A stretch of DNA of 64,000 nucleotides from a virus. Lineage: Duplodnaviria > Caudoviricetes. Below, piece after piece: positions 13,113-26,353 of this stretch. The translations under genes and the position numbers were made by a program. The first letter of the stretch is position 1, and each line of letters opens with the position of its first letter. Under the pieces are notes generated by a model. The model did not search any database, was not told the DNA's origin, and saw only the letters and a list, made by a program, of their open reading frames with translations. Location of the stretch: positions 25,679 through 89,678 of IMG/VR virus record IMGVR_UViG_2660238492_000006. One strand, 5' to 3'.

Positions 13113-13532
13113 TTAAAATGGCATATCTCCATCATCTACTGGAGTTATATCTTCTTCAAAATTGAAATTTTCAAATGGATTATTAGTTGTTGAATTATTT
13201 GAGACTCCTGCACTATTTGACTTGCTTAAAAATTTTACTTCTGTAGCAACTACTTCTGTAACATACCTTTTAGTTCCATCTTTAGCTTCATAATTTCTTG
13301 TTTGAATTCTACCACTTATAGCCATTTGGCTACCCTTTACCATGTAATTTGCTGTGCTTTCGGCTTGTTTACCCCATACAACCACTGGTACAAAGTCCGC
13401 TTCTTTTTGACCAGACTTAGAATTATACTTATCAACTGCTAATGTTAATTTAGTAACTGCTGTTCCTGCTCCTGGCGTAAATTTCAATTCAGGATCTTTT
13501 GTCAATCTTCCGATAAGAACTACTTTATTCAT
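13113..13532 (-). CDS. ssb: Single-stranded DNA-binding protein
   Basis: MNKVVLIGRLTKDPEL OB-fold; acidic DDGDMPF tail. Confidence 0.97.
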   Translation of the reverse strand: MNKVVLIGRLTKDPELKFTPGAGTAVTKLTLAVDKYNSKSGQKEADFVPVVVWGKQAESTANYMVKGSQMAISGRIQTRNYEAKDGTKRYVTEVVATEVKFLSKSNSAGVSNNSTTNNPFENFNFEEDITPVDDGDMPF

Positions 13533-14406
13533 CTTCTTTATTCTCCCAACCTAATAGTTTTTTTTCTAAATTGTCATAGTCATATTCTCTTGATTTAAAA
13601 TTATCAAATCTTAAAGGTGCTTTTTCATTTTTAGCTTTTTTACCTAATTCTCTTTTTTTATCTTCATAATTGCATTCTAATACTTTAATAAAATTGTTAG
13701 GTTTTATTAGCCAATCAAAAGTTATTACCCATGATTTATTATTTTGACCTTTAAGGAAAGAGCTACTCTTTATATTACTAATAGCTTTTAATACATTTTC
13801 AATTCCATATTCTTTGATTCTTGCATTAAGTAACTTATATCTATTAGTACCAGCTTTTATAGATATAACCCTTTGTAATCCTAACAAATTCCATGCATCT
13901 ATTATTGGTTGCACTTTAGTGCTACTAACTATATCTTTAGATATAGTATTATCTATATCTATCTTTATATCTATATCTATATCTGTGTTACTTTTTGTTA
14001 CTTGATTGTTACATTGTAACGCCCTAACTTCTTTTTGCTTTTTTTCTTTTTCTCTAAGTGCTCTTACTCTTGATGCACTTTCACCTTCACTTCCAATCAT
14101 ATTTTGTGTTGCAACCATAAATAATTTTCCATCGTCCCATTGTTCCATTAGACCTAATTGGGTTAATATATCTACTGCAACTTTTACAGTATCAACATTA
14201 GTATTTGTAATGCTTGCTAACATATTTGGTGTGAATGGTATGCAACCATTAAAGATTAAAATCCCATCTGTTGATACTGATTTTAATAAAAGTTTCATAT
14301 AAAAAATTATATAATCTTTTCCGTTAGGCATATTTTCTAAGATTTTAATTTCATCTCTTTCAAAAAAATCTTCTTTAAGTCTTAACCAATAATATCTTTT
14401 TGCCAT
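13525..14406 (-). CDS. Phage replication initiator (replisome organiser N-terminal domain)
   Basis: KRYYWLRLKEDFF N-terminus, DIDIDI linker, FDWLIKPNNF C-terminal domain. Confidence 0.9.
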   Translation of the reverse strand: MAKRYYWLRLKEDFFERDEIKILENMPNGKDYIIFYMKLLLKSVSTDGILIFNGCIPFTPNMLASITNTNVDTVKVAVDILTQLGLMEQWDDGKLFMVATQNMIGSEGESASRVRALREKEKKQKEVRALQCNNQVTKSNTDIDIDIKIDIDNTISKDIVSSTKVQPIIDAWNLLGLQRVISIKAGTNRYKLLNARIKEYGIENVLKAISNIKSSSFLKGQNNKSWVITFDWLIKPNNFIKVLECNYEDKKRELGKKAKNEKAPLRFDNFKSREYDYDNLEKKLLGWENKEDE

Positions 14407-15234: not shown

Positions 15235-15315
15235 AGTTTTTGTATTGTCAAACCATTTTGTCGTATTTTTATTGTATTTTTAATACACAATTGTATTGAC
15301 AATACAATTGTGTAT
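15209..15315. promoter_or_regulatory. Phage A immunity operators TGTATT-N3-AATACA
   Basis: Copies at 15209-15223, 15273-15287 and 15292-15306, degenerate copy at 15241; perfect 33-bp palindrome at 15283-15315. Confidence 0.7.
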
Positions 15316-15346
15316 ATATATAATTATTTATGTTGGAGGTGATGAT

Positions 15347-15691
15347 TTGAATATTGGAACTAGACTAAAAAAGGCTAGAAAATTTAGGGGAATATCTCAG
15401 ACATGCTTAGCGGAACATTTAGGTTTCTCTAGGGGAGTTATAACTAATATTGAAAGTAATAAAACAGTTCCATCTCAGCTTATTTTAGAAGGTATATGTC
15501 AATTGCTTAATATAAATAAAGATTGGTTACTAACTGGTAACGGTGAAATGGATTATAAACAAGTTTCAAAAACTGTAAAAATATTAAGTGAAATAAATGA
15601 AACGGCAAAAGAACTTTCTATTGACGAACAATTATATATACTAGATTTAATTAACACTTTCAAAAAGCATAAAGAATGCTTTAAAAAGTAA
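15347..15691 (+). CDS. XRE-family phage repressor
   Basis: HTH_3 with INKDWLLTGNGEM; TTG start after GGAGGTGA. Confidence 0.88.
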   Translation: MNIGTRLKKARKFRGISQTCLAEHLGFSRGVITNIESNKTVPSQLILEGICQLLNINKDWLLTGNGEMDYKQVSKTVKILSEINETAKELSIDEQLYILDLINTFKKHKECFKK

Positions 15692-16274: not shown

Positions 16275-16568
16275 ATGACTTTTGGAGATAGATTAAAGGA
16301 ACTAAGAGAAGATAATGGATTACGTCAAACTGAATTAGCTGATAAATTAAATTTATCTAGAAATGCAATAAGTGCTTACGAAACAAATACTAATGAACCT
16401 AATTTAGATATTTTGGTTAAATTTGCAGATATATTTAACGTAAGCTTAGATTATCTTTTATGTAGAACTAAAGAAAAATATAATTTAAATTTAGAAAATA
16501 ACACCAACAAGGAACTTTTATTAAAGATATGTGATATTTTGAGCTTATATAAAATAGAAAAAAAGTAG
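16275..16568 (+). CDS. XRE HTH regulator
   Basis: GDRLKELRE...FNVSLDYLL. Confidence 0.9.
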   Translation: MTFGDRLKELREDNGLRQTELADKLNLSRNAISAYETNTNEPNLDILVKFADIFNVSLDYLLCRTKEKYNLNLENNTNKELLLKICDILSLYKIEKK

Positions 16569-16622: not shown

Positions 16623-18917
16623 TTAGTGTGGTAATTTAGTAATAAATTTTGCATATCCATCATTACATTTTATAAGATTTAAACTATAGTATCTTTTTAG
16701 GTTTAATAGATCATCTAATTCGAAAGGTTCTAATTCTTGTTTTAACTCTAAATAATTATCTTTATTGCATCCTGCAATAAGCATATAGCTTGTATTAGCA
16801 CTTTTTAATTCTGGTCTTATATATTTTATTTGCTCTAAACTATGACAGCTTATAATTGATTTTGCTGTTTTTTTAGCAATTTGATTAAGTTTAATTTTTA
16901 AAAATGTTTGGCAACAAGGGACTTGATATAATTCATCAAAAAACAGATTTACTTTTACTCTATCTTCTTCTTTTAATATGCTATGCCTTTGTTGTAATGC
17001 TCCCCATATCTTATTAATCCAATAAGTACAGTATACATCTTTTTCTTCATCTGTACTAAACATTGTTTCTTTCATTTTTAAACAAATAAGTTGATTCTTT
17101 TGCATTTCTTGTACTAGATTTATATTATTGCTGCAATCTTTTTTTAACATTAATTCCATATAAACATTACTTTTAATAACATCCAATCTATTTAAAATTC
17201 CTTGAATATATGAAACCTTAGTACCTACAACTTGTGGTTCTTTGGTTTTACACCAATCATCTAATTCTTGCAATGCTAATACATATTCTTCTAAGTTACT
17301 TCTTTGAGTAGATTGTATTTTATCTATAAATTGCCTTCTAATTTTATAATCTTCTAATACATTAAATACATCTTTAATACTTCCGTTACTTATAAAGACA
17401 ACTAAACTACTTGCTTTTAAATATCTATTCATACGTGGCTCTAATTCATTATCTATATTAATAGAATTAATAAAATTAACTAATTGTGCTGTTTGCATTT
17501 TAGCACTTTTATATACTTCAAAAGTATTATTACTATCTGCAAATATTTCATTAAAGCCTAATCCTTGTAATTCATCAAAATTTGAGCAATCAATATTTAA
17601 TATTTTCTTTTTATCAATTGCATAACTAACATCATTGGAAAACTCACACTCTCCACAAAAGTCAAATATTATTGAACACTCATTATTATCTATAGAATCT
17701 TTTACTAAATGTTTTAATAATGTAGTTTTTCCGCTTCTTGTAGGAGCAATAGCACATAATGTTAAATTCCTAAAATCCTTATCTGTACTTAAATATGCTT
17801 TTGAACTTTTCCCCTTACATATATTTGAACCTATACACATAGTTCCTTCCAACAACTCTACAGGAATTGGAGTTTCTGTTGTTTCTATATGATTTATTTT
17901 AAAATCTTTTAGTAGGTGATCTGCTGGTATCTGAATAAAATTTTGACATTCATCACTAGAGCACATATTTATATCTATTTTATAATCATAATCTTCTATG
18001 TTTATTGTTTTTTTAACTTTTTTATATATTAACTCATTATCCTCAGATAAGACATTATAAGATTGACATATACTTAAAGCGTTATTCTCTTGTCTAGTTT
18101 TATCAATGCTGTCTGAAATAACTGCAATCTGAGTATTAATTATAGTAGCTTCTTTCTTTTTCTTTGTATTTTTAGATGTATCATTTTGTTGTCCTATAAT
18201 AGACATAACATTTTTATACAAGCTTTCATTATCTTTATTAGTGTTTCCTCCTGTAAAGTCTTGTAATACTTCTAAAATGCAATCTAGTGTAGTTAAAACA
18301 GTACCTAAAATAGCCTTTAATATATATTCAAAACTTGTTATTTTCTTTTCAAGTGGTTTATTATTCTTAACCTTATTTTCCATTTCTTCATAGCGTTCTT
18401 TCCAACCAATTTGGCGTATAGGCATAAAATTATAAGCTATTCTTAATCTATCTGTATCTTGCATTATATCCATTACATTTAAAATAGAATTTAATGGTTC
18501 ATTATTTGTTTTATTTACATTCAGACTAAGCGCATCATCTTTTTTATAGTTTAATGAATAAGTAGTAGAATTTACTGAAAATGTTGGTATATCTTCTACT
18601 TCTTTTATAGTAGCTTTTGACCATATTTCACTAATTTTTTCTAAAATTATAGATTTATAGATAACTGGAACTAAAAAATAGAAATTAGCATTATTCTTTT
18701 CTATATCAATAATATAAGATATTTTAAAGTTAGTTTCTATAAATATCTTTTTTTGTTCCTTATGAACACGTTTATTAATGCTTTTATATGTGTGTGAAAT
18801 AGCTTTGGCAATATTGCTTGAATTATAATTCCTAATAGATCTGTGTGGTACTATTTGAATATATGTGTATGTTGGATTGATTAATTGAAAATAATTACTT
18901 AATTTTATAGCTTCCAT
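16623..18917 (-). CDS. Large P-loop ATPase, FtsK/HerA superfamily (VirD4/VirB4-like)
   Basis: Walker A APTRSGKT, Walker B LFFDE followed by an ISCHSLEQ strand; long N-terminal extension. Confidence 0.75.
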   Translation of the reverse strand: MEAIKLSNYFQLINPTYTYIQIVPHRSIRNYNSSNIAKAISHTYKSINKRVHKEQKKIFIETNFKISYIIDIEKNNANFYFLVPVIYKSIILEKISEIWSKATIKEVEDIPTFSVNSTTYSLNYKKDDALSLNVNKTNNEPLNSILNVMDIMQDTDRLRIAYNFMPIRQIGWKERYEEMENKVKNNKPLEKKITSFEYILKAILGTVLTTLDCILEVLQDFTGGNTNKDNESLYKNVMSIIGQQNDTSKNTKKKKEATIINTQIAVISDSIDKTRQENNALSICQSYNVLSEDNELIYKKVKKTINIEDYDYKIDINMCSSDECQNFIQIPADHLLKDFKINHIETTETPIPVELLEGTMCIGSNICKGKSSKAYLSTDKDFRNLTLCAIAPTRSGKTTLLKHLVKDSIDNNECSIIFDFCGECEFSNDVSYAIDKKKILNIDCSNFDELQGLGFNEIFADSNNTFEVYKSAKMQTAQLVNFINSINIDNELEPRMNRYLKASSLVVFISNGSIKDVFNVLEDYKIRRQFIDKIQSTQRSNLEEYVLALQELDDWCKTKEPQVVGTKVSYIQGILNRLDVIKSNVYMELMLKKDCSNNINLVQEMQKNQLICLKMKETMFSTDEEKDVYCTYWINKIWGALQQRHSILKEEDRVKVNLFFDELYQVPCCQTFLKIKLNQIAKKTAKSIISCHSLEQIKYIRPELKSANTSYMLIAGCNKDNYLELKQELEPFELDDLLNLKRYYSLNLIKCNDGYAKFITKLPH

Positions 18918-19114: not shown

Positions 19115-19518
19115 TAAAATGCCTCCCTTACCAATCCAAACATATATGGCATTAAATATAAACTTGCATATATTAGAAGATATTTCATAATTATTTTTCC
19201 AATTTCTGCTGTATTATTTCCACCTCGCATAGATGTTTTAACTATTTCAGCAAGTGCAGACAATAATGCAATCCAATACCCTACTCTTTGTAAAATATTT
19301 AAAAATGTATTTCCTAATTTATCTACTGATTCTAAATCAACTGCTAAAACATGGGTAGGATTATTTATTAAAAATAATGTTGTTCCAATCCCTATTATTA
19401 ATTCTTTTTTAAATCTTTTTCCATCTTTTAATCCTAAATTTTCTAACTTTATATCTAATGTACTTTTGTTGTTATTTTTCCAATTTAAGTATTGTTCATG
19501 GTTCATTACTATTTCCAT
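19114..19518 (-). CDS. Membrane protein, TrbC/VirB2 pilin-like
   Basis: Signal-like segment ending in VLA, then two TM helices joined by a basic Gly loop. Confidence 0.6.
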   Translation of the reverse strand: MEIVMNHEQYLNWKNNNKSTLDIKLENLGLKDGKRFKKELIIGIGTTLFLINNPTHVLAVDLESVDKLGNTFLNILQRVGYWIALLSALAEIVKTSMRGGNNTAEIGKIIMKYLLIYASLYLMPYMFGLVREAF

Positions 19519-19582
19519 AAAACCTCCGAATAAAAATTAATTGATTGGTTAAAATATAAATATTAAAAGGATGGTGATTAAA

Positions 19583-19660
19583 ATGACAATACCATTTGCA
19601 ATTACAGTAGGATATACTATTGCATACGGAGTTGCTTGTTTTGCAGTTTATTTTTTATAA
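19583..19660 (+). CDS. 25-aa hydrophobic peptide (not in the ORF track)
   Basis: MTIPFAITVGYTIAYGVACFAVYFL after an AAGGATGGTGA RBS. Confidence 0.55.
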   Translation: MTIPFAITVGYTIAYGVACFAVYFL

Positions 19661-19740
19661 ATTTCTTAATATTTGTAACAATTAAATATATACTTGCATA
19701 TACTTAACGTATACACGTATACGAGAAGTTACTTAGCTAT

Positions 19741-19773
19741 AGTCTACCAACAATTGGTAGACTTATTTTTTTT
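19741..19773 (+). terminator. Intrinsic terminator
   Basis: agtctaccaa-caa-ttggtagact followed by a T-run. Confidence 0.85.
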
Positions 19774-19804
19774 ATAAAGAATATATAAATTTATATAAAA
19801 TTAA

Positions 19805-19960
19805 CTATCTTTTCTCTTTTTCTTCTTGCTCCATTATATCTCTCAAAATTGATTTTATAAAAGCAGACTTATATTTATTTTTACAAATCCAATTATATAA
19901 TTTTAAATCATCTATATCTTTTTTAAAACTTAATGGTATAAGTAACGGTTTATCACTCAT
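19805..19960 (-). CDS. 51-aa ribbon-helix-helix-like protein (not in the ORF track)
   Basis: MSDKPLLIPLSFKKDIDDLKLYNWI...KSAFIKSILRDIM; AGGAGGT RBS. Confidence 0.7.
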   Translation of the reverse strand: MSDKPLLIPLSFKKDIDDLKLYNWICKNKYKSAFIKSILRDIMEQEEKEKR

Positions 19961-19992
19961 AATTTACCTCCTATTTCTAATTATTTATAATA

Positions 19993-20021
19993 TATAGTAT
20001 GTATAAGACTATATAAGTGTT
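19993..20021 (-). promoter_or_regulatory. SigK-type sporulation promoter
   Basis: aACA-N16-CATActaTA, matching the B. subtilis SigK consensus. Confidence 0.55.
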
Positions 20022-20049
20022 ACTATTTTTATATAACTTTATATATTTA

Positions 20050-20600
20050 TTTATAATTTTAAGTGTATTGCTTACGCCTATACATTCATGATCTTAACTT
20101 CATTTTATTGTTTATTTATATGTATATTTGAGAATTACAAGAATTTTAGAATTATTATTGAATTTTGAATTAAGAAACGAATACTGATTAAACCTGTGGA
20201 CACGTTTTAGGGTATAGTTTACCCTAAAAATATAGGATAAACAAAATATTACTGACATAACTGAATTGTATCTTAGTAACATTACCTACCTTGCCCTTCA
20301 AATGTACTTTAATAACTTACTACTTGCCCATAAGCTACGATATTAAGAAATATCTTGTACAAGTTCCTGTCTTGCGACCAAGCGGACCACCCACATACAC
20401 TTTTATTTATCTATCCTGTAGATGTTGGGAGTGTTGTATCTTACCCAACTGACGACATGCTGCATATGGTAGGCAATGCATACACGCCGAGTTAATTAGT
20501 CGGAACTACCCGAGACGTTTATTTAAAGTGTTTCTCCCCTATTCCACCAAACCTGTTCCCTAAAAAAGGTAACAAGAAATTAAGCCTATACACTTCCTTT
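20050..20600 (-). ncRNA. Candidate long structured non-coding RNA / replication origin
   Basis: No ORF of 60 aa or more; visibly GC-richer than the flanks; several hairpins (20205-20229, 20424-20449, 20461-20480, 20487-20503). Confidence 0.55.
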
Positions 20601-20743
20601 TTTAAAAAAATTGTGATAAACTTAATCTATCGGGAATAAGTTTATCTTTTTAAGATAAAGAAAATATATAAGAATAATTAATCTATATTTAATTTTTAAA
20701 TGAAGGTAATTGGTTGTTACCTTCATTTTTATTCTATAAAAAC

Positions 20744-20774
20744 AAAAAAACTTTATCGGTACACACCAATAAAG
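20744..20774 (-). terminator. Attenuator-type terminator in the minus-strand leader
   Basis: ctttattggt-gtgt-accgataaag plus U7 on the minus strand. Confidence 0.75.
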
Positions 20775-20823
20775 TTATAAAAAATCTTATTTACATTTCA
20801 CCTATCATTTGATATAATAAGGT

Positions 20824-20935
20824 CAGAAATAAGTCTTTCAGTTATAGCTTGTTTTGGTAGTTCGTGTACCATTCGAGTTCCTTTTATTAGAATTTCCGTT
20901 CTAATAAAGGTGAAAGGCTTTATTTTTTTGTTTTT
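20824..20935 (+). ncRNA. Candidate antisense RNA of about 110 nt
   Basis: Promoter TTTACA-N17-TATAAT (20790-20818); closing stem 20831-20840/20911-20920; two internal hairpins; 3' U-run. Confidence 0.65.
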
Positions 20936-20948
20936 TTATTATGTTTAC

Positions 20949-21005
20949 ATTATAATTCTTTTTTGTGGATAAGTCTACATTTTTTTATAAACTTATCCAC
21001 AAAAA
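20949..21005 (-). promoter_or_regulatory. SigA promoter overlapped by inverted perfect DnaA boxes
   Basis: TAGACT-N17-TATAAT (20977-20949); TGTGGATAA at 20964-20972 and TTATCCACA at 20993-21001. Confidence 0.75.
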
Positions 21006-21010
21006 GTATT

Positions 21011-21322
21011 TTAGTCTGTAAATTCTAATGTGTCTAAACAATGTTGTATCATCATATTAATTAATTCATTTCTACTATATCCAGTTCTTTTAACTATTTT
21101 ATCTAATTCTTTTTGTACTGCTCCATCTACATAAAGTGGAAATGATTTTCTTACGCTTTTATCCTCTTGTTTTTTCCCAATTTTAAATGCTATAGTATTT
21201 TCATTTAGTTCTTGATTTTCTTCTTTAATATCAATATTAGATATTGATTCTTGATTTTCCTTTTTAATGCTATTTTTTATATTATTTTTAAAATCATTTT
21301 TCATTTTAATATCACCTTTCAA
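21011..21322 (-). CDS. ParA partner, RHH-type centromere-binding protein (type Ib)
   Basis: Flexible N-terminus, then a C-terminal beta-alpha-alpha pattern RKSFPLYVD...GYSRNELIN; downstream of parA. Confidence 0.75.
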   Translation of the reverse strand: MKGDIKMKNDFKNNIKNSIKKENQESISNIDIKEENQELNENTIAFKIGKKQEDKSVRKSFPLYVDGAVQKELDKIVKRTGYSRNELINMMIQHCLDTLEFTD

Positions 21323-21358
21323 TATGTAGTATTAATATTTAAAATTAATATTATATAT

Positions 21359-22111
21359 TTATTTCATTCTTTTTATGATTTCGTAATACAGATCTTTATA
21401 AGGTTCTGCATACTTTTTATTGTAATCTTGTATTGTTATATTTGATGCAACAGCTTCTTTATATTTTACACTATTATTTATAATTGTTTTGAATACATCT
21501 TCTGTAAGTTCTTCTGTTATAACTTCATTTATTTGTTTTGAAAATATAGTCTTTTTATCAAAATTATTTCTTAATATTCCTAATAATTTTATATCTTCAT
21601 TTACACGATTTTCTTTTATTGTCGTAACAAGATTATCAACTAAATTCAATCCTTGAAGTGCTGATGTAGAATTATCTATTACCTCTATGTAATAATTACT
21701 CATACACATAGCATTAGTTGTACATAAACCTAAAAATGGTGAATTGTCTATTATTATTACATCATAATTATTCTTAAATTTTTCAAATTTATTTTTTAAT
21801 ATGGTTTCTCTTGTTATCTTATTATGAAGTTCTGATTCTAAGACAGCACTTTCAATCGTGTTTGGTATTAAATCTATCATTTCATTGTATTGTGCTATAC
21901 AATCCTTAAAATTCACTTTAGAATTAGAATACAAATCATATAAATTATATTCAGCTTCAACATTTAAAATTTGACTTAAATTTGATTGGCTATCATTATC
22001 TATTAATAAAACTTTATGTCCTTGTTTTGCGAATTGTCCTGCTAAATTTACACAAGTAGTAGTCTTACCAACTCCTCCTTTAACATTTATTATTGATATA
22101 ATATCGCACAT
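21359..22111 (-). CDS. parA: ParA/Soj partition ATPase
   Basis: Deviant Walker A KGGVGKTT, LLIDNDSQ, IIIDNSP. Confidence 0.95.
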   Translation of the reverse strand: MCDIISIINVKGGVGKTTTCVNLAGQFAKQGHKVLLIDNDSQSNLSQILNVEAEYNLYDLYSNSKVNFKDCIAQYNEMIDLIPNTIESAVLESELHNKITRETILKNKFEKFKNNYDVIIIDNSPFLGLCTTNAMCMSNYYIEVIDNSTSALQGLNLVDNLVTTIKENRVNEDIKLLGILRNNFDKKTIFSKQINEVITEELTEDVFKTIINNSVKYKEAVASNITIQDYNKKYAEPYKDLYYEIIKRMK

Positions 22112-22191
22112 TAATATTTCACCTCTTTATATAATATTAATTTATAATATCATTATATCATACTAATATATAATGTAAATACTAAATATTA

Positions 22192-22341
22192 TTATACCCC
22201 ATATAATTTAAAAAACTCCATAACTCTTAGATCTAATTGTTCCTTAATACATTCATTTTTTTTTAGCAACTCTCGCTGTGCTTTATTTATTCTAATACTG
22301 TATACATAATCTTTTTTTTCTTTCTTTTTATTATATTCCAT
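22192..22341 (-). CDS. 49-aa RHH-like protein (not in the ORF track)
   Basis: MEYNKKKEKKDYVYSIRINKAQRELLKKNE...; GAGGTGG RBS. Confidence 0.55.
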   Translation of the reverse strand: MEYNKKKEKKDYVYSIRINKAQRELLKKNECIKEQLDLRVMEFFKLYGV

Positions 22342-25238: not shown

Positions 25239-26353
25239 GCATTAAATGGAAAATTTCCTGTACTTACACTGCTTGATATTGATAGAATCTTTTTTGTAGA
25301 ATCATAATATATTCCACTTACAGAATTTGAAGATTGAAAAGGATAAAAGCTTCCTCCTACTTTTGTTATACATACATATGGATATTGTGAATATGATGAA
25401 TTAGGTTGATCTACTGTTATTGATCCAGCATTAAAATTTAGAAATATTTCATCTCTAGTACCATTAGTATGATTTATAACTCCTTCCAAGAAATTTTTTC
25501 CACCCATACCTTGAATACTTATATTAGCTATTTTAGAAACTAAACTAGCCAAAGCTTCGTTTCCACTAGCACTTACACCTTTGCTATTAAGATTACTAGC
25601 TGTTGTATTCTTATCTGTTTGTATTCTATTGGCTATCTCTGCATGTGTATTACTTCCTGTAACATTTCCAACCTTGCCAGCAATAGCATTCTTACCATTA
25701 CTGGCAAATGTAAAAAGTTCCTGCATTCCAGCCTGTACATTCTTTGCAGACATACCATTAATTGTAGCAAGATTAACCTTACTTGCACTCAAGTCTATAT
25801 TAGCTACTGTATTTTTTAAATCCTCTAACTCTGTCTTACTTGCCTTATTGTTCGCAATATCTTTCAATTGGGCGGTTATATCTGTTCTTAATTGTTCTAC
25901 TTCACCTTTTTTAGCAAAGATAATAGTTGGATCTACTTTAAGTTCTACTGTATCTGTATTGACTACACATAAAATTAAATCTAGTAATAATTCTTTAGTA
26001 GAACCATCTGCTATTACAGGCTTATAGGTTTCAGCACATTTACAAATTCCTATAAGATTATTTTCATCATCAAAAGCACCATATTCTCTTATAGTAAATC
26101 CTCCAACTGTACTTGGAATCATAACTTCTATGTGAATCCAGTTTGGATTTTTTTCATCAACTGTAACATGATTTATATTTCCTTCCCAAACAACATTTTT
26201 TAAATCTGTTTGGCCTTCTGTTGGCTCGTAATATGCTCCTCCTCCATCTCCTATCTTCATTTTTGCAAAGTTTATTTTAGTACCTAAACCTATAGAATTA
26301 GCAACTTTAGCTTTTCCTATATTGGTTAATATGCTATAAAATTTTTCTGCCAC
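25226..26353 (-). CDS. Tail fibre protein (DUF3751/P2 gpH-type N-terminus)
   Basis: FYSILTNIGKAK..GDGGG..GGFTIREYG..ETYKP. Confidence 0.92.
   Translation of the reverse strand: MAEKFYSILTNIGKAKVANSIGLGTKINFAKMKIGDGGGAYYEPTEGQTDLKNVVWEGNINHVTVDEKNPNWIHIEVMIPSTVGGFTIREYGAFDDENNLIGICKCAETYKPVIADGSTKELLLDLILCVVNTDTVELKVDPTIIFAKKGEVEQLRTDITAQLKDIANNKASKTELEDLKNTVANIDLSASKVNLATINGMSAKNVQAGMQELFTFASNGKNAIAGKVGNVTGSNTHAEIANRIQTDKNTTASNLNSKGVSASGNEALASLVSKIANISIQGMGGKNFLEGVINHTNGTRDEIFLNFNAGSITVDQPNSSYSQYPYVCITKVGGSFYPFQSSNSVSGIYYDSTKKILSISSSVSTGNFPFNAWGE

Follow-up and report, generated by a model that had tools for sequence, protein, structure and literature searches.

What function is served by a gene-free stretch of about 950 bp beside the partition genes of a clostridial phage? 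The question is raised by positions 20050–21005 of the window analysed here, a 64,000 nt stretch that forms the last 64 kb of an 89.7 kb IMG/VR record (IMGVR_UViG_2660238492_000006; record class provirus). As a sequence-only reading of the locus had claimed, the stretch holds no open reading frame (ORF) of 60 aa or more; the longest frames between 19960 and 21011 encode 56, 53, 46, 34 and 32 aa. That reading proposed a replicon without an initiator (Rep) protein, in which attenuation is combined with a non-coding, possibly primer-forming transcript, and which maintains the prophage as a plasmid. We divide the module into a control unit next to the partition genes (part 1, 20740–21010) and a conserved RNA core (part 2, 20189–20575, minus strand). 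The core is the solid new finding: it represents a previously undescribed family of ornate RNAs, antisense-flanked and located on mobile elements of clostridia. As to function, our leading reading, put forward tentatively and from sequence comparison, is that the module may act in RNA-based replication or copy control.

Homology searches recovered at least 13 distinct homologues of the core in clostridial phages, prophages and plasmids, and similarity among these relatives starts and stops sharply at the core borders. They include a second IMG/VR provirus that is 89% identical (locus L006), further viral contigs (L040, L042, L044 and L059), metagenome contigs (L045–L047 and L049), four Clostridium genomes (L028–L031), a Clostridium metagenome-assembled genome (L008) and the 121 kb Clostridium perfringens plasmid p21-D-5a. 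A blastn search against phage GenBank records gave no match. The family is rare: in a genus sample searched by BLAST the core was present in 7 of 122 scored genomes (8 more were unscored, and two of the seven were short matches for which the model gave no confirmation), and in a family sample, searched with a model that scored at most 20 candidates per genome, it was present in 2 of 149 (2 more unscored). The covariance model, R1, matches the window at 20195–20339 on the minus strand with 157 bits; it covers only the 3′ 147 positions, which lowers its sensitivity for distant relatives.

The consensus fold of 13 distinct homologues comprises 74 predicted pairs in 14 helices, among them a 10 bp long-range helix that spans about 190 nt and contains five covarying pairs, a closing helix that links both ends, and several covarying hairpins. 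Cells of the fold are paired in 89.9% of cases against 79.7±0.7% in shuffles, and 32 of the 74 pairs change on both sides against 19.5, values that none of 500 shuffles reached, in controls that ignore relatedness and so overstate independence. Partners slid by 1–3 columns pair in only 37–43% of cases, and the 3′ 150 nt of the core taken alone are 95.9% paired. Slid partners pair so seldom, and the distinct pair types are so many, that there is little doubt that the fold is real. By eye, two helices, CCGA/UCGG and GUU/AAC, make up a candidate pseudoknot. A GNRA tetraloop (GCAA, GAAA or GGAA) caps a covarying 3 bp stem in all 13 homologues when read in the minus sense, and as a hallmark of RNA it argues against a fold at the DNA level.

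Nothing in Rfam accounts for this RNA. The window gave no match at the gathering score of Rfam 15, and at E≤10 the interval 19500–21400 and 12 homologue loci gave only chance hairpin matches, which fell on the DnaA palindrome described below; the cmscan proposed with the original reading returned neither ARRPOF nor plasmid countertranscript RNAs (ctRNAs), nor ROOL, GOLLD, OLE, HEARO or Intron_gpI. None of the small ORFs inside the core or upstream of it is conserved; the upstream frame reading LKLNIVL lacks its start or is broken in four of six close relatives. The G+C enrichment noted earlier is present, at 38–45% in 20300–20600 against about 15–30% in the surroundings.

The fold fits the minus strand, which is the sense of the flanking genes, better than the plus strand. 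The structure derived for the minus strand is 89.9% canonical there and 77.0% canonical when mirrored on the plus strand, the alifold consensus energy is −76.7 against −60.1, and wobbles are of the G.U type in 137 cells and of the A.C type in 15 (32 against 14 pairs). Even on a structure optimized for the plus strand, minus-type wobbles are found in more pairs (24 against 15). For the window copy, shuffles fold as well as the plus strand does (z −0.93, against −2.48). The number of independent events behind these counts is small, with a pair-level binomial p of 0.011 on a structure that was chosen for the minus strand. The structured strand is co-directional with the flanking genes in all nine contexts examined.

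At the 3′ edge of the core lies a candidate antisense promoter, P1 (TTGAAT-16-AATACT, 20158–20185, plus strand), which scores 8 of 12 in the window and 9–10 of 12 in relatives. It is kept in 12 of 14 homologues as TTGAMT, 16–17 nt, TAtACT: position, hexamers and spacing are retained while the spacer sequence varies freely, and the promoter scan picked it up in L028 and L029. A plus-strand terminator lies 509–555 nt downstream of P1 in six of seven close relatives, with unrelated stem sequences; the distant relatives have no such terminator. We read P1 as the probable start of a built-in antisense transcript. Five GAATT repeats overlap its −35 region (20132–20171 by eye; 20140–20171, period 8, by TRF); the copies that the earlier reading reported are there, but they are specific to the window element and are not kept with the core elsewhere. 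The direct repeats TTAAGCCTATACA that flank the module were set aside, being peculiar to the window copy, with the motif in one of 13 other loci scanned.

The neighbours of the core vary. Upstream of it lie ParA and a partner protein in the window and in pCBI, a phage-like plasmid introduced below, and ParM/ParR in p21-D-5a, with what we take to be an IS256-like fragment between ParM/ParR and the core. No neighbouring protein is conserved across the contexts, apart from distantly related integrases that are 29% identical. A Cys-rich basic protein of 60–77 aa (MKTG..STIINVRKKRR..C..C) is encoded after the core in L028, L040 and L042, and before it in L046, where the core begins about 60 nt past the stop codon with no terminator between.

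The most telling context is an unrelated 6,173 nt contig (G018:C51, locus L036), in which the core stands beside a relaxase module. An exact 46 nt terminal overlap, of the kind that de Bruijn assemblers leave on circles, indicates that the contig is probably a 6,127 bp circular mobilizable plasmid. It encodes YitT, NikA, a MobA-type relaxase, a ribbon-helix-helix (RHH) protein and three unknown proteins, and none of these matched a Rep family in Pfam, NCBIfam or PHROGs. The module fills the single gene-free stretch of this contig, about 950 nt long, and the layout of sense promoter, antisense promoter by the core, minus-strand terminator, core and P1 recurs there (L031/L036).

In the window, the control unit includes an 18 nt inverted repeat (20960–21005; arms 20960–20977 and 20988–21005, 94% complementary) that carries the only two perfect DnaA boxes, TTATCCACA, of the 64 kb, at 20964–20972 (minus) and 20993–21001 (plus); as arms of one palindrome the two are not independent. 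With one mismatch allowed, 33 boxes are found against 24.4 expected, and only the perfect pair stands out. The predicted sense promoter (TAGACT-17-TATAAT, 20949–20977, minus strand, 10 of 12) overlaps the left box as had been claimed, and its transcript would start near 20942. Convergent to it is the best promoter-like site of the region, TTTACA-17-TATAAT with a TG (20790–20818, plus strand, 11 of 12). As a class, sites resembling promoters show no enrichment (17 against an expected 14.7), and single calls are only as good as their conservation. The convergent promoter would yield the anticipated antisense RNA of about 110 nt, placed at 20824–20935 from inferred ends and complementary to roughly nt 10–120 of the sense leader. 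The 117 nt past this promoter fold at −32.1 kcal/mol, with z −6.4 against shuffles, a terminal hairpin and a U-run; the whole sense leader folds with z −5.4.

Within the leader is a 24-codon ORF with an AAAGGA-type ribosome site (20798–20872, minus strand; MVHELPKQAITERLISDLIISNDR), which may act as a leader peptide. The countertranscript would cover the ribosome site and the first 16 codons of this ORF, and the stop codon is 22 nt before an intrinsic terminator or attenuator of the sense leader (20749–20776, minus strand), which consists of 12 pairs followed by TTTTTGTTTT. The encoded peptide is hydrophilic and shows no conservation in homologues. Facing the attenuator is a plus-strand intrinsic terminator of 13 pairs (20698–20728), so that the terminator hairpins of the original proposal are found as an opposed pair; the region holds three intrinsic terminators against 0.2 expected. 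Boundary hairpins at 20590–20657, drawn partly by eye, separate the control unit from the core, and their block ATTAAGCC is shared with distant relatives, in which it forms the 3′ arm of a minus-strand terminator. Several relatives have a second promoter in antisense orientation just past the 5′ side of the core (L028 1510–1482, L029 1476–1448 and L031 1201–1173, all on minus strands); in close relatives this would yield an RNA of about 110–130 nt ended by a plus-strand terminator, a possible counterpart of the window countertranscript.

Our data are consistent with a model in which these parts form a gated RNA device. The minus-strand promoter under the DnaA-box palindrome would start a leader of about 200 nt, and the countertranscript of about 110 nt would pair with the 5′ part of this leader, including the ribosome site of the 24-codon ORF. 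A ribosome on that ORF could keep the terminator open and the countertranscript would close it, so that the terminator 22 nt after the ORF would decide whether transcription continues into part 2. There, an ornate RNA of about 390–540 nt (20189–20575, perhaps from about 20730) would be made in the minus sense, with P1 at its 3′ edge. The gated sense RNA may then act in cis, using host enzymes, to form a primer or activate an origin, and the antisense RNAs, rising with copy number, would restrain it. Such a scheme would place an attenuator of the pT181 type before a ColE1-like RNAII/RNAI pair, and would also follow the logic of the protein-free origins of lactococcal c2-type phages. All the transcripts, their gating and the role in replication are inferred.

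What the module might represent, if this model holds, is RNA-primed, initiator-free replication in Gram-positive bacteria, with an ornate RNA of about 400 nt, two antisense gates and the portability of an ‘RNA replicon’ cassette; we regard this as possible but somewhat doubtful. With similar reserve, such a cassette may let clostridial phages persist as plasmids, drive the 6.1 kb mobilization (Mob) plasmid and ride in prophages. Above all, it is the probable circle G018:C51, with no recognizable Rep, that speaks for replication. The anatomy of copy control, in which a predicted countertranscript covers the 5′ end of the sense RNA and a predicted terminator comes next, points the same way, and the adjacency to par genes on pCBI and p21-D-5a offers a further lead. 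There is precedent in Firmicutes: c2-type phage origins are non-coding regions between two promoters that support plasmid replication without phage proteins (PMC7150918).

Several observations weigh against replication. The core follows a tyrosine integrase in three prophages (L034, L035 and L051), one of which (L035) is chromosomal, next to yebC on a 2.7 Mb contig. Only 2 of the 72,556 plasmids in PLSDB carry the core, namely pCBI and p21-D-5a, and the latter has both a typed replicon cluster and a hypothetical gene divergent from parM. The control unit beside par is not conserved with the core in other elements; no DnaA-box pair was found near the homologues, with two isolated single boxes across 14 loci, and no conserved sense promoter was found among them. 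In three distant relatives (L031, L008 and Cperf) a minus-strand terminator abuts the core, and sense transcription into the core must therefore be leaky or regulated. Iterons were looked for and none were found, P1 has no counterpart in the ColE1 scheme, and the strand call depends on the few independent events noted above. In G018:C51, the unknown proteins of 196 and 113 aa could be novel initiators. Lastly, the phage encodes its own DnaD-like replisome organizer with internal repeats, and a single-stranded DNA-binding protein (SSB), which could also serve the plasmid state.

The description of the phage as ‘Rep-less’ therefore fails for the element as a whole, given this DnaD-like organizer (PF09681 E 7.7e−29; phrog_10469 E 2.3e−78) and the SSB, 6 kb from the module. 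Bacteriophage P1 relies on different replicons in lytic growth and in the plasmid state. As other phage-plasmids may well do likewise, the organizer is not decisive. The claim that attenuation is coupled to a non-coding transcript survives in part: a leader, a countertranscript and a terminator are predicted and the RNA behind them covaries, but the DnaA boxes, the GAATT repeats and the control unit itself are not conserved.

Comparison with known systems shows where the proposed replicon would stand. Like ColE1 RNAII, the sense RNA would be long, structured and non-coding, measuring about 750 nt from its promoter to the conserved 3′ end (about 645 nt in L036), with a predicted countertranscript of about 110 nt against its 5′ end as in RNAI, and one carrier is a small Mob plasmid without a recognizable Rep. 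Unlike ColE1, the module has no sequence or Rfam relation to RNAI/RNAII, has a terminator between the antisense target and the body of the RNA, has a second antisense promoter at the 3′ end, and occurs in Gram-positive hosts and also in integrated prophages. The plasmids pT181, pIP501 and pAMbeta1 share the order of countertranscript against a leader and then an intrinsic terminator (20776–20749 here); no Rfam ctRNA family matches the module, and behind its attenuator lies a non-coding RNA and no ORF of 60 aa or more before 19960, whereas pT181 and pIP501 have a rep ORF. The 24-codon ORF in the countertranscript target can be compared with the leader peptide Tap of the CopA system of plasmid R1. 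Lactococcal c2-type (Ceduovirus) origins resemble the module in being promoter-flanked, non-coding parts of phage genomes in which neither ORFs nor ribosome sites occur (PMC7150918), and differ from it in sequence, host and genomic place.

Two further groups invite comparison for the RNA itself. OLE, GOLLD, ROOL, HEARO and raiA are likewise hundreds of nucleotides long, with many covarying helices and GNRA loops, and occur on prophages and plasmids of Firmicutes without a protein partner; the module matches none of them in Rfam and differs in that antisense promoters and terminators are built into it. Toxin-antitoxin systems of types I and VIII on prophages and plasmids share with the module a structured sense RNA, a cis-antisense RNA with its own conserved promoter, neighbours that serve maintenance and a patchy distribution. 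They differ in that the module has no conserved toxin ORF, and its sense RNA is far larger than any RNA toxin known to us.

The last likeness leads to the strongest rival of the replicon reading, an addiction or interference cassette made of RNA only, which we consider unlikely but worth serious attention. Here the stable, structured sense RNA would do harm or tie up a host factor, and the unstable antisense RNA from P1 (together with the countertranscript in the window) would neutralize it. Such a device would stabilize prophages and plasmids after loss, as type I and type VIII toxin-antitoxin systems do, or exclude related elements; the probability we attach to these roles is equally modest. 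Much about the core suits it: the module stands on its own, its homology ends sharply between elements that are unrelated elsewhere, it has no conserved protein partner and adjoins maintenance genes (par or int), its antisense promoter is kept in 12 of 14 homologues, terminators insulate both sides, and its occurrence is rare and patchy. However, no small hydrophobic ORF is conserved, we know of no RNA toxin of this size, and the 6.1 kb contig without a recognizable Rep is left unexplained. A classical type I toxin-antitoxin pair was considered separately and rejected: the frames are not conserved, with starts missing in L006 and L028 and a stop in L029, and the 24 aa peptide is hydrophilic.

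A cis-regulatory leader or insulator, that is, a structured RNA within read-through transcripts of par or int that, together with convergent transcription from P1, sets the expression or stability of the adjacent genes, appears less probable still. The co-directionality of the core with its flanking genes (nine of nine contexts) speaks for it, as does the Cys-rich gene that adjoins the core before it in L046, with no terminator between, and after it in L028, L040 and L042. Against this, flanking genes are unrelated between contexts, terminators abut the core in several relatives, and some 390 nt with 14 helices, including long-range and closing helices, exceed the needs of known leaders of this kind.

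The conservation of P1 raises another alternative, improbable in our judgement, in which the strand call from wobbles is wrong and P1 starts a moron-like plus-strand non-coding RNA gene that runs counter to the phage genes and whose product of about 460–545 nt is ended by plus-strand terminators. P1 is the only conserved promoter of the family (12 of 14), the terminators 509–555 nt downstream recur in six of seven close relatives despite their unrelated stems, and most helices are of Watson–Crick pairs that can form on either strand, a structure derived for the plus strand being 87.1% canonical there. Yet the balance of G.U over A.C cells (137 against 15, and 24 against 15 minus-type wobbles even on the plus-optimized structure) speaks for the minus strand, as does the z score of −0.93 against −2.48; the GNRA loops would read YNNC on the plus strand, and distant relatives have no plus-strand terminator.

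Very unlikely, in our view, is a signal in single-stranded DNA (ssDNA), with the minus DNA strand, which would be the template of lagging-strand synthesis were replication forks to move in the direction of the genes, folding into a priming site similar to a single-strand origin or ssi and P1 providing the primer. The folded strand is the template of P1 transcripts and its orientation relative to the genes is fixed (nine of nine), the carriers of the module include a Mob plasmid and a second plasmid, p21-D-5a, that is typed as mobilizable, and sense transcription is apparently blocked in some relatives. The GNRA and UUCG loops nevertheless point to RNA, long-range folds are probably disfavoured on SSB-coated DNA, and we know of no need of double-stranded DNA phages for a single-strand priming site. 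A fold-back ssDNA promoter of the ssoA, M13 minus origin or Frpo type was rejected in ten of ten homologues, where duplex energies equal those of shuffles and positions disagree.

A group I intron without an ORF, the remnant of an IStron or another self-processing ribozyme in phage transcripts is scarcely credible: size and sense orientation would fit, and the AAGAUACAA block is reminiscent of J8/7 of group I introns, but that block is part of a loop on a covarying helix rather than following a P8-like hairpin, no ORF is split by the element, and neither Intron_gpI nor another ribozyme matched in Rfam at E≤10 in the window and 12 homologue loci. IStrons with group IA2 introns, some of them ORF-less, are described for C. 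botulinum, its plasmids and its phages (PMC4227781).

The large ornate RNAs of bacteria are a small group, in which every added class has raised a question of its own. That the core is carried only by clostridial mobile elements, with antisense controls of its own, points to a job that is sensitive to dosage. Little is known of how Firmicutes phage-plasmids replicate in the plasmid state, and a module that replicates would be the first known ColE1-like initiator-free replicon outside the enterobacterial type. It would also give clostridial genetics a compact new origin. Should addiction or exclusion be its role instead, the module would be an unusually large system made of RNA only. In both cases, the RNA family of the core can now be modelled and searched.

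The partition genes next to the module are only partly as the sequence-only reading had them. The product of parA (21359–22111, minus strand, 250 aa) is clearly a partition ATPase (Pfam AAA_31 E 1.5e−44, CbiA E 9.2e−23; NCBIfam ParA_partition E 4.7e−26, below the curated cut-off of that family), but the 103 aa partner (21011–21322, minus strand) resembles an RHH protein only weakly (RHH_1 E 0.047, below the Pfam cut-off; BrnA antitoxin E 0.0039). The partner is homologous to the protein encoded after parA in C. taeniosporum pCt2 (L063 3504–4649). There, convergent genes come within 90 nt of the homologous parA and partner pair, and neither control unit nor core lies downstream. Tandem repeats of 26 and 13 nt just upstream of parA (22110–22196) are likely the centromere or operator of the partition operon. 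These repeats, together with the pCt2 operon that lacks a downstream element, indicate that the gene-free region is not part of par. The module was likewise rejected as the par centromere, since pCt2 par has no module and the core elsewhere adjoins ParM/ParR or integrases. On the other side, the first ORF past the core encodes 51 aa (19805–19960, minus strand; phrog_18533, unknown), and none of the four ORFs after the core (51, 134, 65 and 764 aa) matched a Rep family in the protein family libraries searched. A scan with ARAGORN returned neither tRNA nor tmRNA genes.

The plasmid pCBI is a 40,142 bp circular phage-like plasmid of C. botulinum 202F, and a genome announcement terms the elements of this strain phage-like plasmids (PMC9202375). 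Window positions 1–25,870 match pCBI 11,947–37,813, with an identity of 100% in the first 25 kb and of 98% in the 870 nt that follow, and positions 25,871–64,000 have no counterpart there. The tail and structural genes past 25,871 differ from those of pCBI, so that the record is either a relative of the plasmid with a mosaic make-up or is arranged differently. Nearly all genes of the window are on the minus strand.

Several other features of the phage were seen in passing. The DnaD-like gene (13525–14406, minus strand) contains several short tandem repeat arrays at 13950–14150, which are likely an internal, lytic origin. Two genes encoding Cro/CI-type helix-turn-helix proteins (15296–15691 and 16275–16568, both plus strand) run opposite to the other genes, in the orientation of the antisense promoters of the module, and are likely lysogeny repressors. 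The 764 aa protein encoded at 16623–18917 (minus strand) belongs to phrog_5156, whose function is unassigned in PHROGs; Atlas features place it among P-loop ATPases of the TraD/TrwB/DUF87 type, with a weak Pfam P-loop match at residues 393–423, and it may be a DNA translocase rather than a replicase. Also opposite to the phage genes, a strongly hydrophobic ORF of 25 codons with a good ribosome site (19584–19661, plus strand) is followed by a strong terminator at 19741–19763 (plus strand), and may encode a small membrane peptide or be a type I toxin-like gene.

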